This document shows positions 165-63,885 of a DNA stretch of 64,000 nt, piece after piece. The stretch covers positions 1,281 through 65,280 of the forward strand of contig JBBQAZ010000001.1 in assembly GCA_038316995.1 (NCBI GenBank), in the 5' to 3' direction. Every line of letters begins with the position of its first letter. The stretch's first letter is position 1. The notes beneath the pieces were generated by a model. That model saw only the letters and a list, made by a program, of their open reading frames with translations. It was not told the origin of the DNA and searched no databases. The DNA comes from Candidatus Saccharimonadales bacterium. Its GTDB lineage: Bacteria > Patescibacteriota > Saccharimonadia > Saccharimonadales > JAXHNE01. A program made the position numbers and the translations under genes.

Positions 165-431
165 TTACTTACGTAAGCCGAGCTTTTTGATTAAAGCCAA
201 GTACGCTTCACCGTCTTTGCTAGCCAAGTACTTTAGTAGTCGCTTTCGCTTGCCTACTGCCTGGAGTAGTCCACGGCGGGCCATAAAATCATGCTTGTGT
301 GTCTTTAGGTGTCCAGTTAATTCTGTAATACGTTCTGTAAGGATTGCAACCTGCACCGCAGGGCTCCCTGTATCTGTTTTGCTGGTTTGGTTGTCAGCAA
401 CAATCTTAGTCTTCTTCTCTGTTGAAATCAT
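165..431 (-). CDS. rpsO: 30S ribosomal protein S15
   Basis: 88 aa. The S15-like core is LTERITELTGHLKTHKHDFMARRGLLQAVGKRKRLLKYL. Confidence 0.95.
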   Translation of the reverse strand: MISTEKKTKIVADNQTSKTDTGSPAVQVAILTERITELTGHLKTHKHDFMARRGLLQAVGKRKRLLKYLASKDGEAYLALIKKLGLRK

Positions 432-517
432 TAATCTTCCTTGTTTACTTAATAAGAGATGATGGCGTTACCCAAGAATATACCACACCCACCCCAGTTA
501 TGCAACTATTACAAACT

Positions 518-946
518 TCAACTTCGTTTTACTAGCATACCCTTAAGCTCATGGAGTTCACAAAGTAAAGTTTGAGCTTGCTCATTATCAAGTTCAACAG
601 CTTCTGTCATACTCGTAAAGCTACCCCTCATTGCCCTCACTCCTTCTACATCTACAAAAACACTAATATTATCATATGGATTTGTTTGTCTGCCAACCTG
701 TATGTAAGCGCGTTCACCCTTAAGAGTTGACTCGCCAAGTTCTACGGACGTATATAGCATAGGACAGTCAAAAGATGTGGCATAGGCATCAGGATCAATC
801 GCATATAATCCTTCAAGTCTAGAAAACGGACGCGAGAGGTATACTTCGCTTGGATCTTCAAGATGATCGTCAAGAATAGTGTAAGCTAATTCAATAATCT
901 CTTCACTCACAGACAGAGTAGCAATTTTTTCAATACTTTCGCTCAT
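518..946 (-). CDS. hypothetical acidic protein
   Basis: 142-aa ORF that fills the gap between rpsO and the ABC-F gene. I recognised no motif. Confidence 0.55.
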   Translation of the reverse strand: MSESIEKIATLSVSEEIIELAYTILDDHLEDPSEVYLSRPFSRLEGLYAIDPDAYATSFDCPMLYTSVELGESTLKGERAYIQVGRQTNPYDNISVFVDVEGVRAMRGSFTSMTEAVELDNEQAQTLLCELHELKGMLVKRS

Positions 947-958
947 TTAGATTTTATT

Positions 959-2632
959 TTATACTTTTAATACTTTTTTGTCAATGTTTATTTGTTCTCC
1001 ACCGATGTTTTTGGTGAAGTAGCTGTCGTGGGAAATGTAGATAATGGCGCCGTGATATTGCTTGAGAGCATGCTCAAGCTCTTCTATGCTAGGCAAATCC
1101 AAGTGGTTTGTTGGTTCGTCCAAAATCAGTACCATTGGGTCGTCTGCCAACATGCTCATCAGCTGGAACCGAGCTTTTTGACCACCACTTAACTTTGAAA
1201 CTACCATTTCTCCGTCACTTTCTGGCCTGAAAAGATAATCTCCAAGCATCTGGCGAATCTTTTGATCGCTGGCATTTACTTCCTTGGCCAGCAAAACGTG
1301 TTCAACTGCGTCTTTCAGCTTCATCTTTAGATATTTTGGACCAATTTCTTGCTCATAGTTGCCAATTTTTAGCTGCTTTTCTGTAGAAATGTGCCCGTTC
1401 AGCAATTTACTCTCTGTTTTATCGTTACGGCTTTCTGCCAAGATTGCATTAACCAAAGTAGTCTTTCCTGCCCCGTTACGGCCATGCAAACGTAATCGCT
1501 CGCCTTCTCGCAGCTGAAAAGACACCTCATTAAACAGGGGTTCATCTGTGTATCCAAGCACTAGCTTGTGTGCCTCTATTAGTAGTCTATTGGATTTTGT
1601 CTCACTTGTTCTGGCCCGAATCCGGATATTCCGTGCCTTGTGTTCATCATATGCGTCTGCCAGCTTATTATTTAGTCCCTGCACTGATTCTTTGTCTATC
1701 CAAAAACTTGGCTTAGTCATTTTTTGCAAATCTGCAAGTTCCTTACGGGCTCGTTGCTCTTGGCTTTTAAATCGAGCAATCGTCCCTGGATTGCGAGCTT
1801 TTTCTTTGAGTCGCTGAAACCGCACTACATCATCTTTGAGATTTATTATGCGTCGTTGCGTTACTTCATACTCATTGACTTCACTTGTAACTTTGCTAGT
1901 GTTTGTTCGCAAATAATCATCGTAATTTCCCCTGAAACTATAACTTTTGCCGTCCCGAATCTCTATAATCCTATCAATTGCCTTCAGAACATCTCGGTCG
2001 TGAGTAATTACAACTACTGCCGCTTTTTCACGGTTTAACCATTGCAAAAATAGTTCTTTGGCGGCGTAATCCATGTGGTTAGTTGGTTCGTCTATCAAAA
2101 TTAAATCTGCTTTGCTGTGTTGCAGTTTTGCAAGCTCCACAAAGCGTTTTTGGCCACCAGAAAGCTGCCCAATCTTGCCATCAATGTGGTTGTCTTGAAG
2201 TCCGTAGGCCTGCAGACTGCGCCTTATTTCTTCTTCTACTTGATAGTATCCAAGTGAACTAAATTGTTCCAAAGCATCACCGAACACATCCATCTTTTTG
2301 GAATTACTTCCCATGTGTTCGGGGTATGTATCAATAATGTCTTTAAGCTGTTTGTACTGCGGTAAATCCTCCAAAATAAACGGTAAGACAGAAGCTTCCT
2401 CAAACCCTTGATGCTCCTGCCTTGAACTAACAACTACCAAGTTACGCTGAAAATCTATGTCACCAGCAAAGTCTGAATCTTCCCCTGTTAGCATATGGAA
2501 AAGAGTGGTTTTTCCTGTACCGTTGCGTCCTATAAACCCAAGTTTTTCACCAGCTTGAATTTTGAGCGACAGATCTTCATATAAGATCTTGTCACCAAAA
2601 GACTTTTCTTCGATATTTATATTGGCAATCAT
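959..2632 (-). CDS. ABC-F family ATPase (two nucleotide-binding domains, no TM domain)
   Basis: Walker A motifs GRNGTGKTT and GRNGAGKTT. Signatures LSGGQKRF and LSGGQKAR. Walker B motifs LILIDEPTNHMD and VLILDEPTNHLD. A charged inter-domain linker is present. Confidence 0.9.
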   Translation of the reverse strand: MIANINIEEKSFGDKILYEDLSLKIQAGEKLGFIGRNGTGKTTLFHMLTGEDSDFAGDIDFQRNLVVVSSRQEHQGFEEASVLPFILEDLPQYKQLKDIIDTYPEHMGSNSKKMDVFGDALEQFSSLGYYQVEEEIRRSLQAYGLQDNHIDGKIGQLSGGQKRFVELAKLQHSKADLILIDEPTNHMDYAAKELFLQWLNREKAAVVVITHDRDVLKAIDRIIEIRDGKSYSFRGNYDDYLRTNTSKVTSEVNEYEVTQRRIINLKDDVVRFQRLKEKARNPGTIARFKSQEQRARKELADLQKMTKPSFWIDKESVQGLNNKLADAYDEHKARNIRIRARTSETKSNRLLIEAHKLVLGYTDEPLFNEVSFQLREGERLRLHGRNGAGKTTLVNAILAESRNDKTESKLLNGHISTEKQLKIGNYEQEIGPKYLKMKLKDAVEHVLLAKEVNASDQKIRQMLGDYLFRPESDGEMVVSKLSGGQKARFQLMSMLADDPMVLILDEPTNHLDLPSIEELEHALKQYHGAIIYISHDSYFTKNIGGEQINIDKKVLKV

Positions 2633-3330
2633 ACGACCTGCTTTAAAACTTCAGCTACCGGCTGATCTTGCAACTGGTCAATCGTGTAGGCGTTTATTAA
2701 ATTAAATTCACCGACTGATACGCGCCGTAAATCACTCATATACGCCCCTGTTCCAAGTTTTTCACCAATATCGCCCACCAGGCTACGAATATACGTACCA
2801 GAAGACACGTGGACCATAAATGTAATGTCTGGATAGGCGTACTTCATGTCTGTAATTGAACTTATTTTAACTTTGCGTGGTTCTATTTTCACTTCTTTGC
2901 CTTCGCGGGCTAGTTCATAGGCCCGCTTACCGTTCACTTTTATTGCACTAAAAGCTGGCGGTGTTTGTGTGACCACGCCAATAAATTGTTCAAGTACGCT
3001 CTGGACTTCCTCTACAAACGGCTCGTGTTCACTTTTTTTGGTCAATTCGCCTTCTGCATCACCTGTTTCAGAGGTAGTTCCGAGCTTCATACTAACTTCG
3101 TAAACTTTATCAAGCTTAGAAAATTCCTGCGCCCGCTTACAATAACTACCGACAACTACAATCATAAGACCAGTTGCGAGAGGATCTAGTGTCCCTGTAT
3201 GCCCTACTTTAACCTTGTGTCCAGCTTCATTTTTAAGCATGCCCCGAACTTTTGCCACTACATCGTGACTTGTCCAAGTTTTTAGCTTATCTACTAATAA
3301 TATTCCGTCCATAAGGACCGTATTATACAC
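2629..3330 (-). CDS. truB: tRNA pseudouridine(55) synthase TruB
   Basis: Catalytic motif GHTGTLDPLATGLM. Has a 4-nt overlap with the downstream ABC-F gene. Confidence 0.9.
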   Translation of the reverse strand: MYNTVLMDGILLVDKLKTWTSHDVVAKVRGMLKNEAGHKVKVGHTGTLDPLATGLMIVVVGSYCKRAQEFSKLDKVYEVSMKLGTTSETGDAEGELTKKSEHEPFVEEVQSVLEQFIGVVTQTPPAFSAIKVNGKRAYELAREGKEVKIEPRKVKISSITDMKYAYPDITFMVHVSSGTYIRSLVGDIGEKLGTGAYMSDLRRVSVGEFNLINAYTIDQLQDQPVAEVLKQVV

Positions 3331-3333
3331 GCT

Positions 3334-5160
3334 TTAAAGAGGTGGTACAGGGGGTAGTGTCTGGTGACCGTCGTCGTCTTTTGGATATAGTGGCATTGGT
3401 GGCGGAACTGGTGGTGGCGGAGAAGCTGGGCTTACGGCGTCGGTAGAGGCTGAGGGAATAGGGTCCGGCGGGAATTTAGGCTTACTTGGCTCTTGTCCTG
3501 TCACGGCGTCATTATTCTGCAAACCCGATTCAATATCTAACTTTGTAACATCCAAATAATCATCGTCATCATCTGAACTTGTAACCTCTTGAAGATTTGG
3601 AGTCGCCTGTTCAGCGTGGCTAAGATTTAAATCAATTGGGTTCGCGTTTAGAGCCGCAATCGGCTCAAGGGGTGGTTGATTGCCAGATATTGCCAAAGCT
3701 TGATCGACATTATTCTGTAACTCATCAAGATCAGGAACATTGGGCGCAGCCTCATTACTAACTGGCGGCAAGCCTTCGCTACTTAGCGCGTCTTGTTGAT
3801 GAGGGCTGTCTACTGATTTTTCAAGATAATCTAACGTTTGGTCTACGTTATCTTCAGAGGTACTCCCCTCTGTTTGCCTTGGAATACTTGAGTTGTCATT
3901 GTCTATAAACTCCGGGGCTGGAACTTCTATTTCTAACTCCTGGTTACCGTCTTCTGCTACTTGTTTAGTTTCTTCGTTATCATTTTCTTTTTGGGCTGAA
4001 TCATCATGGCTTAATATTCTCCCTTTTTCTTCAGTTGGGTTTAAGGGGTTAGCAAACTCGTTGTCTTCATCATTTGCGCTTGCTGTCAACGTGCCTGAAT
4101 TTGAAGGTGGTTCTAAAATCATTCTAGCATGTCCCTCTTCGCTGTCTCCAGAGAGTGGTTCTTCTAGTTTTGGCCTTGCTTTTTTGTGAATCTTTGGCAG
4201 TTCATCTAAATGAGATGACTTGAAGTTACCGTCATCATCTACGTGAATTGCATGTGTGTCATCTTCTTGTGGGGCATGAGATTCTTGGGGCTGCACTGGT
4301 ACTTCGTGCTTAATTTCTAGCGATCCATCATTATGCTTTACAGAATCTTCAGACTCTACCACCCCTGTTTCTGTTGGTTCTTCAGCCTCTTTCATCGACG
4401 CAACAGGTTCTGGCTCGGGTTTGACTTGTAGCTGCGTTGCTACAAGCTGCTGGTTCGCGCCGGCCGCCATTAATTTTGCGCTGATATTCATGGTCTCTGG
4501 TTTTGTCTTTTCGTTACTAAAACGTTCTGTTTCGGCAACAATACCGGTCAAGAATGCCGTCGCAATTTGACTATCAAAAACATCATTCTTTAGCGTTAAG
4601 CTCATCTGGGCTACGACCTCTGACAGGCTACTAGTTCCCTGTTCATTTAAGTTTGTTCCGCCCAGTTCGCCTGGTTTATCGACATTAATTGAAACAATCT
4701 TCGCGTCGTGCAATATTCTGCCGTGCGCCGTAATTGCTTGATCTAATTGACCTTGGTCGTGCACTCCAAGCGCGAGGACTACGTCAACGTTAAAATCACC
4801 ATGACTAAAAATTAGATCTTCCTGGCCGATTGTAGTTTTGTAAGGAGTAATGAAGATTTTTACGTGTTGATCTTCTACTTTATATCGAAGCTTATCTGCT
4901 TTGGATTTATCGAGTGAAATAATAAAATCACGGAGACTGTCTGTATTTTTCTCTAGCGTCTCTTCTGGTTTTAGAAACTCAATTGTAGATGGTGAGCTAC
5001 CGCTAAATACGGCTGTTCCGTGCTTACCTAGCTTATTTAGCACCAATGTCATCCCGATTGCAGCAGAAAGCTGGTCAATCGTAGGGTTTTGACTCACGGT
5101 TACAAGAACGTTTTGTGCGTCCTTGATTGTTTGTAATACTTCTGTTTTTGGATTTTCCAT
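3334..5160 (-). CDS. DHH/NrnA-like domain protein with a long acidic/Pro-rich disordered C-terminal tail
   Basis: The N-terminal ~245 aa resemble the NrnA/DHH fold, and the gene sits in the usual truB-adjacent position. The DHH motif is not recognisable (GVHDQ in its place). The C-terminal ~360 aa are low complexity (D/E/P/S/Q), ending in PPPPVPPPMP. Confidence 0.6.
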   Translation of the reverse strand: MENPKTEVLQTIKDAQNVLVTVSQNPTIDQLSAAIGMTLVLNKLGKHGTAVFSGSSPSTIEFLKPEETLEKNTDSLRDFIISLDKSKADKLRYKVEDQHVKIFITPYKTTIGQEDLIFSHGDFNVDVVLALGVHDQGQLDQAITAHGRILHDAKIVSINVDKPGELGGTNLNEQGTSSLSEVVAQMSLTLKNDVFDSQIATAFLTGIVAETERFSNEKTKPETMNISAKLMAAGANQQLVATQLQVKPEPEPVASMKEAEEPTETGVVESEDSVKHNDGSLEIKHEVPVQPQESHAPQEDDTHAIHVDDDGNFKSSHLDELPKIHKKARPKLEEPLSGDSEEGHARMILEPPSNSGTLTASANDEDNEFANPLNPTEEKGRILSHDDSAQKENDNEETKQVAEDGNQELEIEVPAPEFIDNDNSSIPRQTEGSTSEDNVDQTLDYLEKSVDSPHQQDALSSEGLPPVSNEAAPNVPDLDELQNNVDQALAISGNQPPLEPIAALNANPIDLNLSHAEQATPNLQEVTSSDDDDDYLDVTKLDIESGLQNNDAVTGQEPSKPKFPPDPIPSASTDAVSPASPPPPVPPPMPLYPKDDDGHQTLPPVPPL

Positions 5161-40500: not shown

Positions 40501-41091
40501 ATGTTTGGTCATACAAGCCAGAATTCAGATAATCAATCAGAAAATGCGCAAACCTTTGGAGATAATCCAGTTGGACCTGCTCCAACTGCGCCAAGTCTAC
40601 CAACAATGGGGGGACAAGCTTCTCCATTTAGTCCAGCACCTACTCAACCGCAAGCAGCGCCACTGACAGATCCAGTTGTGCAGCCGGATCCACAAGTAGT
40701 ACCTCAATCAGAGGAAGAGCACTTTCCACATAATGAAGACACATCGCATATGATGACAGACCATGGTTCACCAGACCCAATAGACAGTAATCAAGACTTT
40801 GACAGCGATAGCATGAACGACTCTGTATCGAGTCCTACCCTACCATCCGGCGACCTCGTAGATATTAAGCAAAGTGCTTTGCAGCAATTATCTCCACTTG
40901 TTTCACACCTTGATCAGTCCGCAGAAGAAAAATTCCGAACAACTATGATGATGATCCAGGCAACAGACGACCAATCACTCCTAAAGCAAGCTTATGAGTC
41001 CGCACAGAAAATAGAGGACGACAAAGCTCGTGCTCAAGCATTACTAGACGTTATAAACGAAATAAATTACTTCACCCAACAAGGTAAATAA
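40501..41091 (+). CDS. hypothetical low-complexity (Pro/Gln/Asp-rich) protein
   Basis: 196 aa. A GGGGTGGG Shine-Dalgarno lies upstream. Confidence 0.55.
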   Translation: MFGHTSQNSDNQSENAQTFGDNPVGPAPTAPSLPTMGGQASPFSPAPTQPQAAPLTDPVVQPDPQVVPQSEEEHFPHNEDTSHMMTDHGSPDPIDSNQDFDSDSMNDSVSSPTLPSGDLVDIKQSALQQLSPLVSHLDQSAEEKFRTTMMMIQATDDQSLLKQAYESAQKIEDDKARAQALLDVINEINYFTQQGK

Positions 41092-41157
41092 ACTCTCAAA
41101 AACTTAAAAAGCCACCTTTTACAGTGGCTTTTTAAGTGCTCAGACCTTACTTTATCT

Positions 41158-41529
41158 TTACGATTCTTGTGCGAAACGGTAATTTCGTCGATTACTGATG
41201 GCTTCCTGAACTCTTGGAATCACCACACTAGTTTGCTTTTGAGCGATGTTTGAAATAAGTTGGTGTGAACTTTTAATTTCCTGCTCCAGTGAGTGTATTC
41301 TGTTTTCAAGATTTGTAACTTGTGTCTTTTGAATCCTGGCACGATCATCAAGTTGCCGGATGAACTGTTGCTGATTTTGTTGAAGATAGTCATGCATATA
41401 GCTAATCATTCTATCCCTTGCACCATCTGCAGCACGCTGAACGTCTTGCCGAGTGGCAATCTGATCTTGTAGCCGTCTACACGTTTGGTCGAGCATTGTT
41501 TGCATGTCTTGGCGAGAAACTGAACTCAT
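41158..41529 (-). CDS. hypothetical coiled-coil protein
   Basis: 123 aa. Strong AAGGAGGTG Shine-Dalgarno. A TGCTACAAT box lies about 100 nt upstream, near 41633. Confidence 0.6.
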   Translation of the reverse strand: MSSVSRQDMQTMLDQTCRRLQDQIATRQDVQRAADGARDRMISYMHDYLQQNQQQFIRQLDDRARIQKTQVTNLENRIHSLEQEIKSSHQLISNIAQKQTSVVIPRVQEAISNRRNYRFAQES

Positions 41530-41684: not shown

Positions 41685-42131
41685 CTAACGGAGTTCTTCA
41701 GGACCGCTTGGACCCGTACTTGGGAGTTCGGTCGTAGGACCACTTGAAGGAATGTTCTCGTTGCTAGCTGATTGACTTGCTCCATTAGAGTTTGTGTTGC
41801 TAGATTCTGATTCCACTGGATTATCATTGGAATCACCTGGTAGAGTGCCGTCTATCGTAAGATCATTTAAGAAACTACCGGAGTCATCGTCGGATGAATT
41901 GTCTTGATTTTTATTGTCGTTTTCACCCTGCTGAACTGTTGCTGGCTCGTCACTAAAAATAGTTCGGTATACCCAGCGGCCACCAAAAAACAATCCAAGT
42001 GCCAAAAGTACAGTTATGAATAACGTTGCAATACCAAGTAACCATGCAACACCAACTCGTTGGCGCCTTTCACTGGCATAATATTCATTAATATCGTCGT
42101 TTGCAGATTTTCTTCGATTAAATAGTCCCAT
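41685..42131 (-). CDS. membrane-anchored hypothetical protein
   Basis: 148 aa with one TM helix and an acidic, Ser/Asn-rich tail. Confidence 0.55.
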   Translation of the reverse strand: MGLFNRRKSANDDINEYYASERRQRVGVAWLLGIATLFITVLLALGLFFGGRWVYRTIFSDEPATVQQGENDNKNQDNSSDDDSGSFLNDLTIDGTLPGDSNDNPVESESSNTNSNGASQSASNENIPSSGPTTELPSTGPSGPEELR

Positions 42132-42384: not shown

Positions 42385-44037
42385 CTACATCATTGCGCCC
42401 ATGCCACCCATGCCAGGGGCGCCGCCACCAGCTGGAGCTTCTTCTGGAACATCCACCACTAAAGCACCCATGGTCATGCTGGTTCCAGCAATACTGGCTG
42501 CATTTTGAATTGCCTCTTTTGTAACACGCGCTGGGTCAATCACACCAGCAGATTTCATATCTACTAACTTGTTTGGAGAATTTACATCAACGCCCTGCCC
42601 TGGCTTAGCCTGTTTTACGAGCGGTAGCCACTCGTCAGCATTGAGCCCTGCATTTTCCAGTAGTACTCTAAACGGCTGTTCTAGGGCCTTTTTAAGTAGT
42701 CCCCGTCCGGCTGCAACTGCGTCATCATCTGATTTATCGCTAGAAATGCTACTAATCAAATTAATTAGTGTTACGCCTCCACCTGGCACAATTCCTTCGT
42801 CCAAAGCTGCTTTTACTGCTGCAACTGCGTCATCTACGCGAAACTTCTTTTCTTCTATCTCTGTTTCTGTAGCACCGCCAACTTTAATTACGGCAACTTT
42901 GCCTTCAAGCGCTGCACGGCGCTTTTCTAGGTTTTCCTTGTCATATTCGCTGGTTGCGGCCTTAATCTGCTCATTAATTTGTTCAATTCGAGCTTTAACA
43001 TCACTAACACTTCCAGCACCTTCGATAATTGTCGTCTCGTCTTTAGTAACAATCACCTTGCGGGCACTTCCAACTACATCTATTTCTACATTTTCAAAGC
43101 TCATACCTTGGTCTTCGGAAATAACCGTTGCACCAGTCAAAATTGCAATGTCCTGGAGTATTTCCTTGCGGCGATCACCAAATGCCGGGGCCTTCACCGC
43201 CACGGTGTTAAATACACCTTTTAGTCGGTTTAAAATAAGTGTTCCGAGTGCTTCACCTTCAACATCTTCTGCAATCAAAACTAACTCTTTCTTGCCAGTT
43301 TGGGCAAGCTTTTCAAGTAGCGGCAAGAACTCCTGCAAGCTACTAATCTTCATGTCGGTTACGACAATTGCTGGTTTTTCCTGAATTGCTTCCATTCTAG
43401 ACGTGTCGGTCGCCATATATGGGCTTACAAAGCCTCGATCAAAGGTAAAACCTTCAACGACTTCACTCTCTAACTCTAAGCTTTGTCCTTCTTCAACCGT
43501 TACCACTCCATCTTTGCCAACTTGGTCAATTACATCGGCAATCAACGCACCAATTTCTTTGTCGCCTGCAGAAATTGTAGCCACTTCTGCCACTCGCTGC
43601 TTATTGGCTTTAATGTCTTCCGCCATGCCAGTCAGCTTTGTAATAACGTCATGCGCTGCTGATTCCAGGCCTTTGCGTAGCAACATTGGATTATGTCCGG
43701 CTGCTATCAACTTGTTTGCTTCGTTCAATATATTGTAAGTAAGCACCGTTACGGTTGTTGTTCCGTCACCCGCAACGTCGTTCATTTTGCTAGCTGCTTG
43801 CTTGATAAGCTCGGCACCAACTTTGTAGCCCAAAGTTTCATCGTCTACATCTGCTAGTTCTACGCCTTTGGCTACAGTCACACCGTCATGAGTAACTGTT
43901 GGGCCACCGTAACTTTTGCTAATAACCACATTACGACCTTTTGGCCCCATCGTTGTTTTCACTGCGTTATATAAAACTTCTGCTCCGGCCAATACTCGGC
44001 GCCTTGCGTCGTCATCATAAAATACTTTCTTAGCCAT
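42385..44037 (-). CDS. groL: chaperonin GroEL
   Basis: Motif DEGIVPGGGV and C-terminal GGMGGMGAMM. I chose the start at MAKKVFYDD, which follows a GGAGAG Shine-Dalgarno. Confidence 0.95.
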   Translation of the reverse strand: MAKKVFYDDDARRRVLAGAEVLYNAVKTTMGPKGRNVVISKSYGGPTVTHDGVTVAKGVELADVDDETLGYKVGAELIKQAASKMNDVAGDGTTTVTVLTYNILNEANKLIAAGHNPMLLRKGLESAAHDVITKLTGMAEDIKANKQRVAEVATISAGDKEIGALIADVIDQVGKDGVVTVEEGQSLELESEVVEGFTFDRGFVSPYMATDTSRMEAIQEKPAIVVTDMKISSLQEFLPLLEKLAQTGKKELVLIAEDVEGEALGTLILNRLKGVFNTVAVKAPAFGDRRKEILQDIAILTGATVISEDQGMSFENVEIDVVGSARKVIVTKDETTIIEGAGSVSDVKARIEQINEQIKAATSEYDKENLEKRRAALEGKVAVIKVGGATETEIEEKKFRVDDAVAAVKAALDEGIVPGGGVTLINLISSISSDKSDDDAVAAGRGLLKKALEQPFRVLLENAGLNADEWLPLVKQAKPGQGVDVNSPNKLVDMKSAGVIDPARVTKEAIQNAASIAGTSMTMGALVVDVPEEAPAGGGAPGMGGMGAMM

Positions 44038-44120
44038 AATCGTTCTCTCCATTCACTTTAGGTTATAGGTGCTAGGTTTTAGGGTTTTAGTTCTAGTCAC
44101 TAGCCACTAGAACCTGTCCA

Positions 44121-44414
44121 CTATTTCACTACTGCGTAAATGTTTTCTTCTTTAATAAGCATGTAATCATCCCCATCGTGCTTGATGTCAGTATTACTGT
44201 AGCCACCATAAATAATACGGTCGCCCACTTTCACCCCAATCGGAATATGCTCATTGTCGTCACCAACTCTACCTGGTCCTACAGCCACGACTTTGGCTAT
44301 TTTTGGCTTTTCCTGTGATTTTTCTGGAATGTATAGACCGCTTGCAGTTTTGGATGCTGCCTCTTCGGTTTGCGCGACAACGTAGTCGGCTAAGGGCTGA
44401 ATTTTTGAAGCCAT
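44121..44414 (-). CDS. groS: co-chaperonin GroES
   Basis: MASKIQPLADYVV...; 97 aa. AGGAGGAG Shine-Dalgarno upstream. Confidence 0.95.
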   Translation of the reverse strand: MASKIQPLADYVVAQTEEAASKTASGLYIPEKSQEKPKIAKVVAVGPGRVGDDNEHIPIGVKVGDRIIYGGYSNTDIKHDGDDYMLIKEENIYAVVK

Positions 44415-44481
44415 GCTTCTCCTCCTGTTAATAACTTTTTCTAGAACTAGGATCGATGATTCTCGCAAATAACATCGACCA

Positions 44482-44508
44482 CTAGCACTCTATTATCGCG
44501 AGTGCTAA
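44482..44508 (-). promoter_or_regulatory. CIRCE operator (HrcA binding site)
   Basis: CTAGCACTC-N9-GAGTGCTAA against the consensus TTAGCACTC-N9-GAGTGCTAA. Confidence 0.9.
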
Positions 44509-44520
44509 TTCTATTGTCAA
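44492..44520 (-). promoter_or_regulatory. groES promoter TTGACA-17-GATAAT, with the -10 inside the CIRCE spacer
   Basis: The minus strand reads TTGACA atagaattagcactcgc GATAAT. Confidence 0.7.
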
Positions 44521-44606
44521 GTTTTGCTTTTTATCAGATGTAATTAAAGTTATCGAAAGGGTGGAATGGTGAGATTAGGGAGGGGGGTTAGTAGTTAGAA
44601 ATGAGG

Positions 44607-44677
44607 GGGTCTCGGGAGGTGTTCGCCACTTGGGCGACACGCGGCGGCTACTACGCCGGCACACTCTCCCGAGACCC
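44607..44677. repeat. 71-nt GC-rich imperfect palindrome (GGGTCTCGGGAGGTGT ... ACACTCTCCCGAGACCC)
   Basis: The arms are 16-17 nt with one mismatch. The interior holds two smaller GC hairpins. It lies in the 3' region of the 96-aa GC-rich ORF. Confidence 0.7.
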
Positions 44678-44688
44678 TGTCCTCACCT

Positions 44689-44718
44689 GTTACCTGCTTC
44701 CCCCTAGTCGCAGGTAAC
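44689..44718. repeat. hairpin GTTACCTGC-12 nt-GCAGGTAAC
   Basis: Perfect 9-bp stem, 19 nt past the stop of the 96-aa ORF. Confidence 0.6.
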
Positions 44719-44736
44719 GATCATGCAACCTGTTGG

Positions 44737-45027
44737 TCAGGCCGACACACGGAGGCGAACCTCATTGTGGTCGATCATATCGGACAGATCGAGGACGGCG
44801 TCCTGATCAGCAGTTTTAGCACGGCAGTCGTACTTGCACCGACAATCCGATGTGGGCTTAAGTGCCGGAAAATCATCGATTTGATGCGTCAGAGCATCAA
44901 TCTGCTCTTGCAGTTCTGCTTCTCGTCGCCTGCGTTCTGCCAACTTGCGTTGCTTCCTGATTGCTCCGGACATCCCCTTGCGGAATCGCTTGGCACCAAC
45001 AGTCTCTTTTGTACTGACATGTGTCAT
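44737..45027 (-). CDS. GC-rich orphan ORF: basic/coiled-coil N-terminus with a Cys cluster (CRCKYDC)
   Basis: 96 aa with a GGGGAGAA Shine-Dalgarno. Its ATG overlaps the upstream ORF's stop (ATGA). Local GC is 52-65% against a 35-48% background. Confidence 0.5.
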   Translation of the reverse strand: MTHVSTKETVGAKRFRKGMSGAIRKQRKLAERRRREAELQEQIDALTHQIDDFPALKPTSDCRCKYDCRAKTADQDAVLDLSDMIDHNEVRLRVSA

Positions 45028-45326
45028 GATTCTCCCCTAGCAATATATTTCATCGGCGTACCGATATAGCTACCCCCTATGGAAGCAAAAAACGTCCTAA
45101 ACTTACGTTTAAAGGCGCCCATTGCTTCCATAGGATAAACTTCCATAATCTCAACGTACAAGACCTGTTTACTAACAGATCTCAAAAATTGTTTAATGAG
45201 CGTCGGTGCACCAAATACTATAGCGCAGAGCTCTAAATTAAACTTGTAAGCTACTGTACTCTCTCTTTTGTCAAGAATCAAGTCGCTTTGGTTTACAAAA
45301 CCATAAGAATATATTGCAAAATACAC
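45024..45326 (-). CDS. hypothetical protein (low-GC, uncertain)
   Basis: 100-aa ORF translationally coupled (ATGA) to the GC-rich ORF. No motif recognised. Confidence 0.35.
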   Translation of the reverse strand: MYFAIYSYGFVNQSDLILDKRESTVAYKFNLELCAIVFGAPTLIKQFLRSVSKQVLYVEIMEVYPMEAMGAFKRKFRTFFASIGGSYIGTPMKYIARGES

Positions 45327-45342
45327 GTTTTTAGTGTATAAT
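45314..45342 (+). promoter_or_regulatory. promoter TTGCAA-17-TATAAT, 8 nt from ATG 45351 (leaderless)
   Basis: Read directly. No Shine-Dalgarno is present. Confidence 0.55.
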
Positions 45343-45350
45343 CAACGCTG

Positions 45351-48113
45351 ATGCCACAAAATATCACCCCTGAAGGCACTGTACTACTCCTCCAGGTGCC
45401 GCGAACAAACGAAAAAAAAGAGCTTGCCGCAGAGCAAATGCTTGCTTCCTTGCACGGCTTGCTTTACAGGGGTAAAAACGGATTATTTAGCAAAAGCAAC
45501 CGCGAACACATTAGTTTTGAAATAGCGGTCAAAAACAAACGAATCGGCTTTTATGTATGGGTGCCATCATCACTTAAAAACTTTGTTATTGAACAAATAT
45601 ACGCTCAGTACCCAACCGTGCACATTTCAGAGGTAGAGGATTATGCGGACTTAAGCGTCAACACTTCCCCAACTCGTATGACAGCCGAACTTAAGCTCAC
45701 CTCCCCACAACAGCTCCCAATCAAGACTTTCCCTAGCTTTGAGGTAGATCCACTTGCAGCAATTACCGCTACGTTGGCCCAGTTTACAGAGCACGAAGAA
45801 GCTTGGATTCAGGTAATTGTACGCCCGGCCGGGGACAGTTGGCACAAAGCTAGCGAACGCTACATTGCAACCATGAAAGGTAGTGGCAGTGGCGGACTAA
45901 CAAAGGCTCTTTGGACGCCTCCAGAAGGGTCAACACAGCCAAAACTAGCCGAACACCAGACAGCTCGTATTTCTGCGGCAGAAACAAAAGCCCAAAAACT
46001 TGGTTACGATGTTTGTGTACGCATAGTTTACGCTGGGCAATCGTCCGAGGCCGAGGCAAAAATGCGTCTGCAATCAATCATTGCTAGTTATAAACAGTTT
46101 AATTCAACGTACCTAAACGGCTTTGCCTCGCGCTTCATAGACACGAAACCGGCGCATATTGAGGCTTTTTCAGAAAGAAAACTCACAAACAGCTACGTGT
46201 GTAACATCGAAGAAGTCGCCAGCTTATTCCACCTGCCGCACACCAATGTAGAAACCCCAAACATTCTTTGGGCAAACGCCGCAACAGCCGAACCACCAGC
46301 CAATCTACCGCTGGTTGAAGGCGCAATAAAAGACACAATTAGCCCTATGGCCGTAACTAACTTCCGCGGCCACAACACCCCGTTTGGAATCAACCGCAGC
46401 GACCGTAGCAGACACATGTACATCATCGGTCAAACTGGTGTTGGTAAATCCGCCTTGCTTGAAATCCTGACAATCGCAGACATCCACAGCCCATACGGTT
46501 TTGCCGTAATCGATCCGCACGGTGATTACGCAGTTAATATCCTAAAACGTATTCCACGAGAGCGCGTCAAGGACGTTATTTATTTCAACCCTGCCGATAC
46601 TGACTTCCCGATTGCCTTTAATCCTATGGAAGTTACCGACCCCAAACTAAAAACCCACACCGCATCAGAGCTGATTGGCGTATTAAAGCGCATGTTTGAG
46701 TCATGGGGACCACGTCTTGAATATATTTTGCGCTACAGCTTGCTAGCATTACTTGATTATCCAGACTCAACTATGTTGGACATTACCCGAATTTTGACGG
46801 ATAAAAAGTTCCGCGACGAAGTCCTCACCTATGTTGAAGACCCAGTTGTACGCAACTTCTGGGAAGTTGAATTTGCCAGCTGGAACGCTAAATTCCAGGC
46901 AGAAGCCGTAGCACCGGTACTCAACAAAGTTGGTGCATTTACCGCAAACCCAGTGGTCAGAAACGTTATTGGACAACCAAAAAGTAGCTTTAACATCCGC
47001 AAAATAATGGATGACCGCAAAATTTTGATAGTAAACCTTACTCGTGGATTAATTGGTGAAGACAATGCCAGCCTACTTGGAGCGCTTTTGGTAACCAAAA
47101 TACAGATGGCCGCCATGAGCCGTGCCGACATGGAACTAGAAGAGCGCGTACCGTTTTATCTCTATGTGGACGAATTCCAAAACTTTGCCACCGACAGCTT
47201 TGCAACAATTTTATCCGAAGCACGTAAATATGCACTAAATTTAACAGTTGCCAACCAGTACACCGCCCAGATGAGCCAAGAAGTTAAAGATGCAGTCTTT
47301 GGCAACGTAGGATCAATCGTCACTTTCCGCACCAGCGCCGACGATGCCCGCACAATGACCAAATACTTTGAACCGCATTTTACAGATCATGACATTGTTC
47401 ACATGCATAACCGCGACACGGCTATAAGTATGATTATCGAGGGCGAAAAAGTTCCTGCTTTTTCTGCCGCTACCCTGCCGCTGCCAGAATTTGGAGAAAA
47501 CTTTTCCAAAACAATCATTGATAACACTCGGGAGCAATTTGCAGCCAACCGCTCCGACATTGAAGCCTATATGAACGATCGCTACGGCAAGGAAATAAAA
47601 AAGCTCAGTGGCGATAAAAACTCCTTCCCAAAACTAAAGCTTGAGCCAAAAACAGAAGTTGAGAATAATACTGATAAAAACCCGGTTAAAATCAGTAAAG
47701 AATCTGAAACCACGGCTTCCACTACTCCAGAAAATAAGCATGAAAAAGAGCCTCAAACCACGCCAGCTGCCAATACCGATCCAAAAACTAGTGCAAAAGG
47801 TTTGATTAGGCTTGCAACCAAGACAGATTCAACAGATAAGATAGTGGAATCTCAGCCATCAGCTGAAAGCGCAGAAGAAAAGCCAAAGAAAAAACGCCGC
47901 AGACGACGACGCAAGTCTAAATCAGTGGAAACGCCTCAAGAAGTTTCTAATATATCAGCAGAGAAAAAACCCGAACCAAATAAGCAAAAACCTACCAAGA
48001 AGGCAGAAGCTCAATTAAAAACCCCAATTGCCTTACCAAAACCAAAAACCGACACCATGGTTGTCCCTAAAAACGGCGAACAATCCGACGAAACAATCAT
48101 TGACCTCCGCTAG
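45351..48113 (+). CDS. soluble type IV coupling protein-like (TraD/VirD4/DUF87-type) P-loop ATPase with an N-terminal ~340-aa unknown domain and a Lys/Arg-rich tail
   Basis: Walker A GQTGVGKS, then VIDPHGDY, Walker B FYLYVDEFQNF, and LTVANQYTAQM. The C-terminal ~170 aa are disordered and include KKPKKKRRRRRRKSKS. Confidence 0.8.
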   Translation: MPQNITPEGTVLLLQVPRTNEKKELAAEQMLASLHGLLYRGKNGLFSKSNREHISFEIAVKNKRIGFYVWVPSSLKNFVIEQIYAQYPTVHISEVEDYADLSVNTSPTRMTAELKLTSPQQLPIKTFPSFEVDPLAAITATLAQFTEHEEAWIQVIVRPAGDSWHKASERYIATMKGSGSGGLTKALWTPPEGSTQPKLAEHQTARISAAETKAQKLGYDVCVRIVYAGQSSEAEAKMRLQSIIASYKQFNSTYLNGFASRFIDTKPAHIEAFSERKLTNSYVCNIEEVASLFHLPHTNVETPNILWANAATAEPPANLPLVEGAIKDTISPMAVTNFRGHNTPFGINRSDRSRHMYIIGQTGVGKSALLEILTIADIHSPYGFAVIDPHGDYAVNILKRIPRERVKDVIYFNPADTDFPIAFNPMEVTDPKLKTHTASELIGVLKRMFESWGPRLEYILRYSLLALLDYPDSTMLDITRILTDKKFRDEVLTYVEDPVVRNFWEVEFASWNAKFQAEAVAPVLNKVGAFTANPVVRNVIGQPKSSFNIRKIMDDRKILIVNLTRGLIGEDNASLLGALLVTKIQMAAMSRADMELEERVPFYLYVDEFQNFATDSFATILSEARKYALNLTVANQYTAQMSQEVKDAVFGNVGSIVTFRTSADDARTMTKYFEPHFTDHDIVHMHNRDTAISMIIEGEKVPAFSAATLPLPEFGENFSKTIIDNTREQFAANRSDIEAYMNDRYGKEIKKLSGDKNSFPKLKLEPKTEVENNTDKNPVKISKESETTASTTPENKHEKEPQTTPAANTDPKTSAKGLIRLATKTDSTDKIVESQPSAESAEEKPKKKRRRRRRKSKSVETPQEVSNISAEKKPEPNKQKPTKKAEAQLKTPIALPKPKTDTMVVPKNGEQSDETIIDLR

Positions 48114-48861: not shown

Positions 48862-48967
48862 ATTCTAACATTTTGCACAACACTTAGTCAACTTAAAAAA
48901 CATTTGACACTCTTTGTCAAAAGGAGTATCTTCAAATAGTCCATAATGGCAATCAAAAGGGGTAACG

Positions 48968-49372
48968 GTGGAATCGAGCTCGAAAGAGATCGACACAGAA
49001 ACACTCATTGTTGGGAACAACGGTGAATGCGTGTCCGAGACTGGGCACACGCGCATCAAGATCTGGTGTGAGGCCGAGCCCACGCTTACCTTCACCAACT
49101 TTCTCGGCGCTGTCACTGACGGCATCGAGAATCTGGAGACAGTGCTCAAAAGCAAGCTCCCGGGAGCGCGCTACGAACTGGTCTTCCCTCCACACTTGGA
49201 GGATTTGCACCGCATGCACGGTATCGCCTCGCAGTTCATCCTTGAGGTGAACAGTCGACTTCGTGTCCAGAATGACACGATGTTGAGAAGATTTCTTTAC
49301 CCAGGCGAAGACAGCGGGATGGCCGAACCCTCCGAAGTCGGTGCATATGGCAACTACGACCGCGATCGCTGA
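48968..49372 (+). CDS. GC-rich orphan ORF
   Basis: 134 aa with a GTG start preceded by AAAAGGGG. Third-codon positions are strongly G/C-rich in this frame. Local GC reaches about 63%. Confidence 0.55.
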   Translation: MESSSKEIDTETLIVGNNGECVSETGHTRIKIWCEAEPTLTFTNFLGAVTDGIENLETVLKSKLPGARYELVFPPHLEDLHRMHGIASQFILEVNSRLRVQNDTMLRRFLYPGEDSGMAEPSEVGAYGNYDRDR

Positions 49373-49384
49373 TTAACCAGGACG

Positions 49385-49429
49385 CCCGGACGGGAGATGC
49401 ACAACTACGTTGCAACATCCCCGTCCGGG
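49385..49429 (+). terminator. long GC hairpin after the GC-rich ORF (CCCGGACGGG.GATG / CATCCCCGTCCGGG)
   Basis: 14-bp stem with one bulge and a 16-nt loop. No U-tract. Confidence 0.45.
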
Positions 49430-49526
49430 TTCTGGGCAAGGTTTAGTAACCAACAAGAATGTTGTAGGCACATTTGCCTCCATTACTTAACTAATTACTA
49501 AACCTCGCCCTTCAACCACGTAAACT

Positions 49527-49554
49527 AAAACACCCCATTCCAGGGGTGTTTTTT
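49527..49554. terminator. bidirectional rho-independent terminator
   Basis: AAAACACCCC-attcca-GGGGTGTTTT(TT). Confidence 0.75.
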
Positions 49555-49579
49555 AATGGACTTGAATTGGAGAAAATAT

Positions 49580-63604: not shown

Positions 63605-63638
63605 TATTCAACATGGAGAGGTACCCGCCTCATACCGT
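63605..63638 (+). pseudogene. tRNA-Ser-derived minihelix or remnant
   Basis: The first 12 nt (GGAGAGGTACCC) match the 5' end of the tRNA-Ser at 63793. It ends CTCTCTCCG, matching that tRNA's 3' acceptor strand plus discriminator. The internal arms are missing. Confidence 0.45.
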
Positions 63639-63654
63639 GCTCTCTCCGGCAGCT

Positions 63655-63695
63655 GCCGGATCGAGGCCAAGCAAGGAAAACGTTAACAGCCACTG
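63655..63695 (+). repeat. motif copy C: GGCCAAGCAAGGAAAACG plus hairpin CGTTAACAGCC-act-GGCTATTAACG
   Basis: 11-bp stem with a single C.A mismatch. Homologous to copy A. Confidence 0.55.
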
Positions 63696-63792
63696 GCTAT
63701 TAACGGGCGTGAAGGGTTTCCCATAAACCACAGAGAAACTATTGTAGTTTACAAATAGTGGCACGAGATTCGCGCCACTATCCGAAAACTAT

Positions 63793-63885
63793 GGAGAGGT
63801 ACCCAAGTGGCTTAAGGGGATGGTTTGCTAAATCATTAGTGGGGCGCAAGTTCCAGCGAGGGTTCGAATCCCTCTCTCTCCGCCA
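63793..63885 (+). tRNA. tRNA-Ser (anticodon GCT), long variable arm, CCA encoded
   Basis: Hand-folded: acceptor GGAGAGG/TCTCTCC, anticodon loop TTGCTAA, T-arm GAGGG-TTCGAAT-CCCTC, discriminator G. Confidence 0.9.

Follow-up and report, generated by a model that had tools for sequence, protein, structure and literature searches.

A candidate fold-back-closed RNA module around an orphan small gene upstream of groES in Saccharibacteria

To obtain insight into an unusually GC-rich segment of a Saccharibacteria genome, we analysed a stretch of 64,000 nucleotides from a Candidatus Saccharimonadales bacterium (GenBank assembly GCA_038316995.1, contig JBBQAZ010000001.1, positions 1,281 to 65,280; hereafter the window, from which all coordinates are counted unless a relative is named). 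The segment lies in the gap between groES and a divergent gene for a VirD4-like ATPase and forms the 3' two-thirds of a minus-strand unit of ~640 bp (about 44530-45175). Our preferred reading, to which we assign a probability of roughly 0.55, is that this unit is a self-contained expression module whose transcript folds back on itself, encodes a small arginine-rich helical protein and has its fate as an mRNA controlled by the fold-back. From 5' to 3' the module consists of a 13-nt arm, a leader hairpin, a small hairpin, a Shine-Dalgarno (SD) sequence, a 96-aa open reading frame (ORF), two hairpins (H1 and H2) and a C-rich tail. The original prediction, made from the same sequence, had delimited a cassette at 44550-45040; the feature is real, and these borders cut through the unit, with the leader (45040-45160) and the partner of the 3' tail lying outside.

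The GC jump that the prediction placed at 44581-44760 was confirmed by a whole-window scan, in which this segment had the highest GC content among all 180-nt intervals of the 64 kb, and 120-nt intervals at 44580-44759 reached 0.617-0.625 versus ~0.43 across the window. The interval 44601-44700 also has the lowest 100-nt folding energy of the 64 kb on both strands (-52 / -53 kcal/mol, GC-corrected z ~-4.7), with folding z-scores of -3.9 over 231 nt and -5.5 for the 150-nt 3' element on the minus strand. Neither the module nor the arm of its palindrome has a second copy in the 64-kb window.

RNA structure of the module

The relatives that carry the module were recognised through homologues of its small protein, P0004 and P0005, which are encoded on contigs L081, L082 and L083 (L082 and L083 being the same sequence from two sources). 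The 5' arm of the putative closing helix, GUUGAGAUUAUGG (45143-45155, minus strand), is invariant in the window, L081 and L082, and is the reverse complement of the tail motif CCAUAAUCUCAAC, which is conserved in L081 and L082. This complementarity between the two ends is perfect over 14 nt in L081 and over 13 nt in L082, an extent reached by 0 of 2000 shuffled tails, and the tail copy of the window, CCCUAAUCUCACC (44568-44580), pairs with the 5' arm at 11/13 positions. In the folds of three whole modules a G-run of the leader is predicted to pair with the C-run located just upstream of the tail motif (44581-44589 in the window), and the closing helix is present in the minimum free energy and centroid folds of all whole modules. 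Whole-module z-scores were -5.2, -8.0 and -9.2 for the three modules of the window clade and -6.1, -7.4 and -6.8 for more distant modules found at loci L080 and L070 (described below); for the antisense strand of the window-clade modules they were -4.6, -7.4 and -5.0, weaker than the sense strand in all three. The closing helix covaries across module types: the six module arms, aligned on the core RAGAUYRUGR, define 13 core pairs, eight of which (13 cells) changed on both sides, with one G-U, and in this alignment, which was anchored on the pairing, 77.8% of the cells are paired versus 26-43% after a shift of the partner by one to three columns.

The leader begins with the block GUACGUUGAGAUUAUGGAA, followed by the hairpin P2, a G5 block, the small hairpin P3 and the SD sequence. 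P2 (45076-45134, minus strand) combines 13 invariant basal pairs, CCUAUGGAAGCAA / UUGCUUCCAUAGG, with a variable distal stem whose sequence differs among lineages while its pairing stays; over its 22 pairs 98.5% of the cells are paired, five pairs changed on both sides and many are G-U. The G5 block AUAGGGGGUAGC and P3 (AUCGG-UACG-CCGAU), together at 45052-45075 on the minus strand, are invariant in the three lineages. The three lineages scarcely differ over the ~100 nt upstream of the ORF, though synonymous divergence (pS) in groEL is saturated (0.74, window versus L082), and the non-coding leader at 45040-45160 is the most conserved part of the module, the coding part being less conserved. 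We rejected a leader peptide within it, as no frame is kept: L081 has a 1-nt indel, and relative to the main ORF the reading frame is not the same in the window as in L083.

Downstream of the ORF, in the 3' untranslated region (UTR), the predicted 9-bp hairpin H1 (44689-44718, minus strand) proved to have a perfect stem (44689-97/44710-18) closing a G-rich loop, UAGGGGGAA, with a conserved GGGGGA motif. Across relatives its stem measures 9-12 bp; 94% of the cells of its 12 pairs are paired, and in seven pairs both sides have changed. The long GC hairpin H2 (44599-44688, minus strand) contains the predicted 71-nt palindrome at 44607-44677, extended outwards by 8 bp. The palindrome arms pair perfectly over 12 bp (44607-18/44666-77), with four more pairs beyond a 1-nt bulge, and both they and the two inner hairpins reported at first are recovered in the predicted fold of the window; the inner hairpins are not conserved in the relatives, and the apex, a three-way junction in the window only, is variable, so that conservation is confined to the basal ~17 bp, comprising an invariant GGGUC/GACCC base and a covarying extension of 10-12 bp. 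A GGGUCU...GACCC base is common to L081, L082 and a third candidate unit of L070.

The tail (44530-44598, minus strand) is extremely poor in G, with 3 G versus 30 C in 86 nt of the window and 3-5 G versus 27-30 C in all copies, which accounts for a spike in GC skew (+0.60 on the plus strand at 44520-44639). The motif UAGGGGGA occurs twice in the module, after P2 and in the H1 loop. No intrinsic terminator was found on the minus strand at 44470-44740, H1 and H2 being followed by C-rich and not U-rich sequence. G-U pairs are frequent in the helices of the module, and because H1, the base of H2 and the leader hairpin covary with many such pairs, the comparison identifies these hairpins as RNA structure selected on the strand of the ORF. 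This bears out a structured RNA, the first of several options that the original prediction had left side by side. The module has no match in Rfam 15; the region 43800-45600 gave chance matches only (mir-657 and a snoRNA, E ~0.5), and at gathering score the window yielded two tRNAs elsewhere and nothing else. An SRP RNA, tmRNA, RNase P RNA, 6S RNA or ribozyme, suggested by the loop GGGGGAAGCAGG, was rejected since Rfam returned none at E<=1 and ARAGORN found no tmRNA.

The small gene and the distribution of the module

The ORF enclosed by these structures (44737-45027, minus strand) encodes P0001, a basic and largely helical protein of 96 aa. It has its own SD sequence where it was predicted, GGGGAGA at 45031-45037, and AAGGAGAA and AGGAGAA occupy the same place in the relatives. 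When 1.84 billion cluster representatives were searched exhaustively with HMMER, two homologues emerged, P0004 (93 aa, 48% identity, E 1.6e-13) and P0005 (87 aa, 39%, E 2e-6). In a word-indexed search of 5.8 billion proteins P0001 matched itself only, and profile searches, including the word-indexed search with a profile, added nothing to the three known members; the family is an orphan, to which only three of about 15 billion proteins belong. Searches with tblastn and a hidden Markov model (HMM) found no homologue near groEL in 80 other Saccharibacteria loci, and Pfam, PHROGs, NCBIfam, PADLOC and PDB sequences gave no match above threshold.

The three proteins share an N-terminal MT.VS, a basic stretch RRFR.GM.GA.RK and a C-terminal DL.DM..H.EVRL. 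A CRCKYDC cluster, singled out in the original prediction, is present in the window ORF and does not hold as a motif, as the homologues have RRRKYEY and SRCKFET. Frame, start and SD are retained in three lineages with saturated synonymous sites, conserved residues are encoded by differing synonymous codons, as read from the sequences, and nonsynonymous divergence (pN 0.35-0.46) is lower than synonymous divergence (pS 0.65-0.80). Taken together, this comparative evidence marks the 96-aa ORF as a real and fast-evolving gene. AlphaFold predicted a single long helix at residues 10-51, the C-terminal part being ill-defined (predicted local distance difference test 69.7, predicted template modelling score 0.35). 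A Pup-like identity was discarded, the match being sub-threshold (E 0.056), located on the coiled-coil stretch, and the protein lacking a C-terminal GGQ/E. Our guess is that the protein might bind nucleic acid through its basic helix; more speculatively, the two UAGGGGGA copies of the module may be what the arginine-rich helix binds.

The start codon overlaps (ATGA), as described earlier, the stop of an upstream 100-aa ORF (45024-45326, minus strand), which is listed in a public collection as predicted protein P0002. This ORF covers the nearly invariant non-coding leader and the conserved promoter-like region upstream of it, the matching frames of L081 and L083 contain stops or frame-shifting indels, and we found neither a homologue nor a Pfam match. 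Because it overlaps a non-coding leader and the frames of the relatives are broken, this low-GC ORF is probably a spurious gene call and an annotation error.

Gene order in the window, L081 and L082/L083 is identical: a divergent VirD4-like gene, the leader, the small ORF, H1, H2, the tail, a TTGACA promoter with a CIRCE (controlling inverted repeat of chaperone expression) operator, and groES-groEL. As this synteny is conserved in three assemblies, a chimeric assembly is unlikely. GroEL of the window is 92% identical to that of L082, and either is 88-89% identical to that of L001, the closest GTDB representative, which is without the module and has the VirD4-like gene and groES side by side, with ~120 bp in place of the ~650-770 bp of the window. 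Since L001 lacks it, either the ancestor of a small clade would have gained the module or L001 would have lost it. GC content is raised in all three versions of the module (0.51-0.55 vs 0.43).

To look for more distant members, we built a covariance model from the leader (R1) and searched the 80 groEL-flanking loci, which gave one further locus, L080 (43 bits, E about 9e-8). Its module, again upstream of groES, has the arm AAGAUUGUGAAAG, a perfect hairpin of ~24 bp, an H2-like stem, a tail containing CUUUCACAAUCUU and an intrinsic terminator. A 23-aa ORF, MPTIMRVAACVITIRRKTEGVVL (5040-5111 of L080), follows directly after the leader hairpin, and because its stop overlaps the GTG start of a main ORF of ~106 aa (GTGA), translational coupling of the two is suggested. 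A search with the L080 ORF for protein homologues returned nothing. An inverted-repeat scan revealed two tandem modules upstream of groES on the 11.6-kb contig L070 (A, 2598-3308; B, 3444-3942) and a third candidate ~3 kb upstream of groES (371-1014), with a differently placed arm and an H2 base as in the window. The ORF content of the three L070 units, taken in the order of their coordinates from 371 to 3942, is about 38 aa, 83 + 52 aa and about 47 aa, and the module B and third-candidate units, like that of L080, end in intrinsic terminators. Each of the three has a different arm that matches its own partner alone, with a G-U pair in module A. Because every L070 copy pairs only with its own partner and the copies are without target-site duplication, intramolecular RNA pairing explains the arms better than protein recognition or transposon ends. 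The ORFs of these distant modules show short colinear resemblances to the window protein (VSTK..RRF.RKM and QDA..DL).

Further candidate modules lie upstream of groES in L053 (1312-1936), L049 (4400-5355) and L058 (4828-5278), with complementary arms of 11-13 nt that could be due to chance; L053 and L049 have a very strong hairpin behind the 5' arm, and L058 has a terminator behind the 3' arm. A generic "inverted repeat plus hairpin" scan of all loci was, with 10-nt arms, too noisy to count more members. Scanning metagenomes with a 19-nt leader block gave 8 hits, all unrelated chance matches, and scanning viral sequences with a 15-mer of the leader gave 9 chance hits, none carrying the rest of the leader.

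Genomic neighbourhood and further features of the window

The window derives from Saccharibacteria (TM7), the best matches of its groEL (79-89% identity) being mostly metagenome-assembled genomes labelled Saccharibacteria, Saccharimonadales or Patescibacteria. On the minus strand groEL occupies 42385-44052 and groES, with a Cpn10 match, 44121-44415. The groES promoter, TTGACA-17-GATAAT (44483-44520, minus strand), overlaps a CIRCE operator, TTAGCACTC-N9-GAGTGCTAA (44483-44507), and both are kept in all related loci inspected (L001, L070, L080, L081 and L082). A second CIRCE-like repeat is apparently present just downstream of the first in L082, L080 and L070. The gap from the groES start to the start codon of the VirD4-like gene measures 935 bp and contains the GC-rich feature. 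A promoter-like site read from the sequence within this gap, P1 (TTGATT-17-TACAGT, 45253-45281, minus strand), is a weak candidate for the start of the module transcript; its counterparts are TTGCAA-17-TATAGT in L001, where it was called, and TTGCAA-17-TATGGT in L081 and TTGCAA-17-TATCGT in L083, both identified by eye.

Divergently from the module, the plus strand encodes a VirD4/TrwB-like ATPase of 920 aa (45351-48113), a coupling-protein homologue with a long low-complexity C-terminal tail rich in lysine and proline, which stands alone amid housekeeping genes. The further neighbours, PGI, a Mur ligase, TsaD and ValRS, are housekeeping genes, and no relaxase, integrase, transposase or other type IV secretion system gene was found within the stretch examined (~36.8-57 kb of the window).

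Beyond the VirD4-like gene lies a second GC-rich (0.55-0.60) and strongly folding cassette (48862-49560, plus strand; fold z -6.5), with a promoter-like TTGACA-17-TATCTT and a 134-aa ORF (48968-49372) that has no Pfam match. Its stop codon is followed by a long GC hairpin (49378-49436) and another hairpin; a tail poor in G then leads to an intrinsic terminator at ~49531-49556. Over 425 nt this cassette matches L001 with 77% nucleotide identity, although synonymous sites are saturated; it gave no Rfam hit, and no 5'-3' closing helix was seen in it. In addition, the first 12 nt of a tRNA-Ser at 63793, GGAGAGGTACCC, are duplicated at 63614-63625, where the copy opens a strongly folding stretch of ~170 nt just upstream of the tRNA (63614-63790, plus strand) in which Rfam matches the tRNA alone. 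An AT-rich segment at 41040-41180 (GC 0.31-0.35), spanning the 3' end of an ORF at 40501-41091 (plus strand) and the start of the gap to an ORF at 41685-42131 (minus strand), has an unusually stable minus-strand fold (GC-corrected z about -4 to -4.7).

Competing explanations and biological meaning

In the mechanism that we propose, one transcript would span both arms, and its 5' arm and the adjacent G-run would pair with the C-run and the 13-nt motif of the tail; this closing pairing, together with the adjoining leader hairpin, would enclose the SD, the ORF, H1 and H2 in one closed domain. By analogy with type I toxin mRNAs, the fold-back may hold the transcript in a compact form that resists nucleases and is little translated as long as it has not been opened or processed, and H1 and H2 could serve as 3' stability or protection elements or as processing elements. 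The raised GC content is on this account a consequence of RNA structure and of coding rich in Arg, Ala and Asp, and not of foreign origin.

Traits that mark type I toxin mRNAs and serve T1TAdb as descriptors (PMC8594479) are structure at the 5' end, stem-loops at the 3' end and a functional long-distance 5'-3' interaction, and this interaction governs their stability and translation (PMC8594479; see also PMC5416894 and PMC9841398). The module resembles those of hok/Sok and aapA1/IsoA1 in that its putative transcript, self-contained and built around a small gene, combines structure at the 5' end with 3' stem-loops and a predicted 5'-3' interaction, and resembles toxin-antitoxin (TA) systems of type I in its tandem copies and in a presence that varies between relatives (L070 vs L001). 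However, type I toxins are proteins of 20-60 aa, usually hydrophobic, encoded by mRNAs of 150-400 nt (PMC8594479), whereas the module protein has 87-96 aa, is hydrophilic and basic with a predicted long soluble helix, and belongs to a putative RNA of about 500-730 nt. Moreover, neither a conserved antisense promoter nor an antitoxin RNA was found: the window has a promoter-like site antisense to the leader (GTGTCA-17-TATATT, 45021-45049, plus strand), the -10 element of which is not conserved in L081 and L083. Because toxin size and hydrophobicity differ and no antisense RNA was found, type I TA serves as an analogy and not as a classification of the module. The module, which came to notice as a long GC-rich segment in an AT-richer genome, also resembles in this the structured non-coding RNA candidates that the GC-IGR/DIMPL approach recovers (PMC6429828 and PMC8723152), and differs from them in containing a conserved protein-coding ORF and in matching no motif described in Rfam 15.

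Several observations weigh against a self-contained fold-back module. The promoter, the RNA ends and the co-transcription of the two arms are all inferred from sequence, and the window clade consists of three independent sequences only. The closing helix of the window has two U-C mismatches, and by itself its perfect-match measure is not significant (465/2000 shuffles); strand discrimination by folding energy is modest for L081 and the window; and the six-copy alignment of the closing helix, given its anchoring, leans towards structure. The lack of a conserved antisense promoter in the window, L081 and L083 counts on the same side. Furthermore, the ORFs of the distant modules have no significant similarity to the window protein, which thus may not be the conserved function, and no intrinsic terminator precedes groES in the window, L081 and L083, so that the modules of the window clade may belong to a groESL leader.

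The last point leads to the main rival, a cis-acting function as groESL leader by processing or Rho-dependent attenuation, which we regard as unlikely. The module would then be read from the P1-like promoter into groES-groEL, and the closing helix, the leader hairpin of ~20 bp and H2 would act as stems of the RNase III type. Such stems flank rRNA and phage transcripts; the module shares with them a long-range duplex bracketing a functional unit and a perfect hairpin of ~20 bp, a likeness offered as analogy only, and its context differs. In a variant of this explanation, the G-poor, C-rich tail would be a Rho-loading site masked or exposed by the 5' arm, tuning chaperonin expression, and the composition of the tail in all copies agrees with it. 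That no intrinsic terminator separates the ORF from the groES promoter in the window, L081 and L083 likewise speaks for this rival, as do the conservation of the P1-like promoter even in L001, which is without the module, and the position of five of six module copies (three of them in the window clade) directly upstream of groES, with L070 A separated from it by B alone. Against it stand the clear intrinsic terminators before the groES promoter in L080, L070 B and the third L070 candidate, the strong promoter and CIRCE that groES itself has in every genome, and the distance of ~3 kb between the third L070 candidate and groES; the sample is moreover biased to groEL-flanking DNA, and the association with groES is perhaps partly an artefact.

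Less probable still is a trans-acting dual-function RNA, whose unpaired C-rich tail or G-rich loops would pair with target mRNAs and whose ORF would be secondary or a lineage-specific cargo. The model for it, S. aureus RNAIII, is an RNA of ~500 nt with many hairpins, long-range 5'-3' closing helices, a small ORF and C-rich single-stranded segments, all of which the module has as well, although it has no sequence or Rfam relationship to RNAIII and its ORF is much longer than hld. In favour of such a role, the architecture is conserved across module types and the ORFs are not, UAGGGGGA is placed after P2 and in the H1 loop while the C-rich tail is single-stranded, and the whole-module z-scores (-5 to -9) are out of the ordinary for an mRNA. 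However, no targets were identified, the G5 motifs are restricted to the window clade, and within this clade the ORF is clearly maintained.

An element acting at the DNA level, be it an insertion like a miniature inverted-repeat transposable element (MITE), a recombination site, an integron-like cassette or a fragment that came recently from a high-GC source, for example an actinobacterial host, we consider very improbable, even if GC is above background, 13-nt inverted repeats bracket the module, L001 as the closest reference genome lacks it and one L070 region holds several copies. The same locus and raised GC recur in lineages with saturated synonymous sites, where the non-coding part is more conserved than the coding part; no donor-like protein appeared among 1.8-5.8 billion sequences, the searches giving only homologues in a Saccharibacteria context, and blastn found no match in phage or plasmid collections. 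Because the same segment is present at similar GC in the relatives and no donor-like hits were obtained, a combination designated beforehand as the mark of an ordinary lineage-specific gene, the module is lineage-specific and not a recent import, contrary to the high-GC donor first proposed. Nor does the proposed MITE with 17-bp terminal inverted repeats survive, as the palindrome is an internal 3'-UTR stem, single-copy in the window and unmatched in phages and plasmids. Inverted repeats exist, but each L070 copy has its own arm sequence, including the G-U pair of module A, so that they are not shared as the ends of a DNA transposon would be; a hairpin of 55-65 nt interrupts the extended arm pairing, and neither target-site duplications nor flanking direct repeats are visible at any copy. 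A recombination site, also suggested originally, finds no integrase or relaxase nearby among its housekeeping neighbours, and the 64-kb window has no transposase next to the module and no second copy of it. An integron attC site was rejected because the arms GTTACCTGC/GCAGGTAAC do not, by eye, fit RYYYAAC (R''/R' core RYYYAAC...GTTRRRY) and no integrase is among the neighbours. An oriT with a relaxosome accessory protein beside the VirD4-like gene was likewise set aside, there being no relaxase, type IV secretion system or integrase gene nearby, and the G-U-rich covariation favours RNA.

Our literature search found no paper on such fold-back modules. The module is thus best read as a member of an undescribed family of fold-back-closed small-gene transcripts in Saccharibacteria with an architecture like that of type I toxin mRNAs, for which the function given above is a proposal. 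A broader and rather doubtful idea is that the modules form a class, not recognised before, of RNA-controlled selfish or regulatory cassettes in Saccharibacteria, which belong to the Candidate Phyla Radiation (CPR). Their fold-back-locked transcripts of 500-730 nt would encode fast-evolving arginine-rich toxin-like or RNA-binding proteins, and the cassettes would accumulate, sometimes in tandem, in a variable region beside groESL and act by a mechanism analogous to type I TA and distinct from it. For annotation, the locus teaches that a GC spike is no evidence of horizontal gene transfer and that the adjoining 100-aa ORF was probably miscalled as a gene. Next to nothing is known of RNA-based regulation in Saccharibacteria or the rest of the CPR, and the module is a candidate, resting on comparative evidence, for a large structured RNA that surrounds an orphan gene beside the main chaperonin operon and is closed by a covarying 5'-3' helix. 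Metatranscriptomics, the probing of its structure, genetic work in cultivable Saccharibacteria and a covariance-model survey of CPR genomes thereby gain a defined target.

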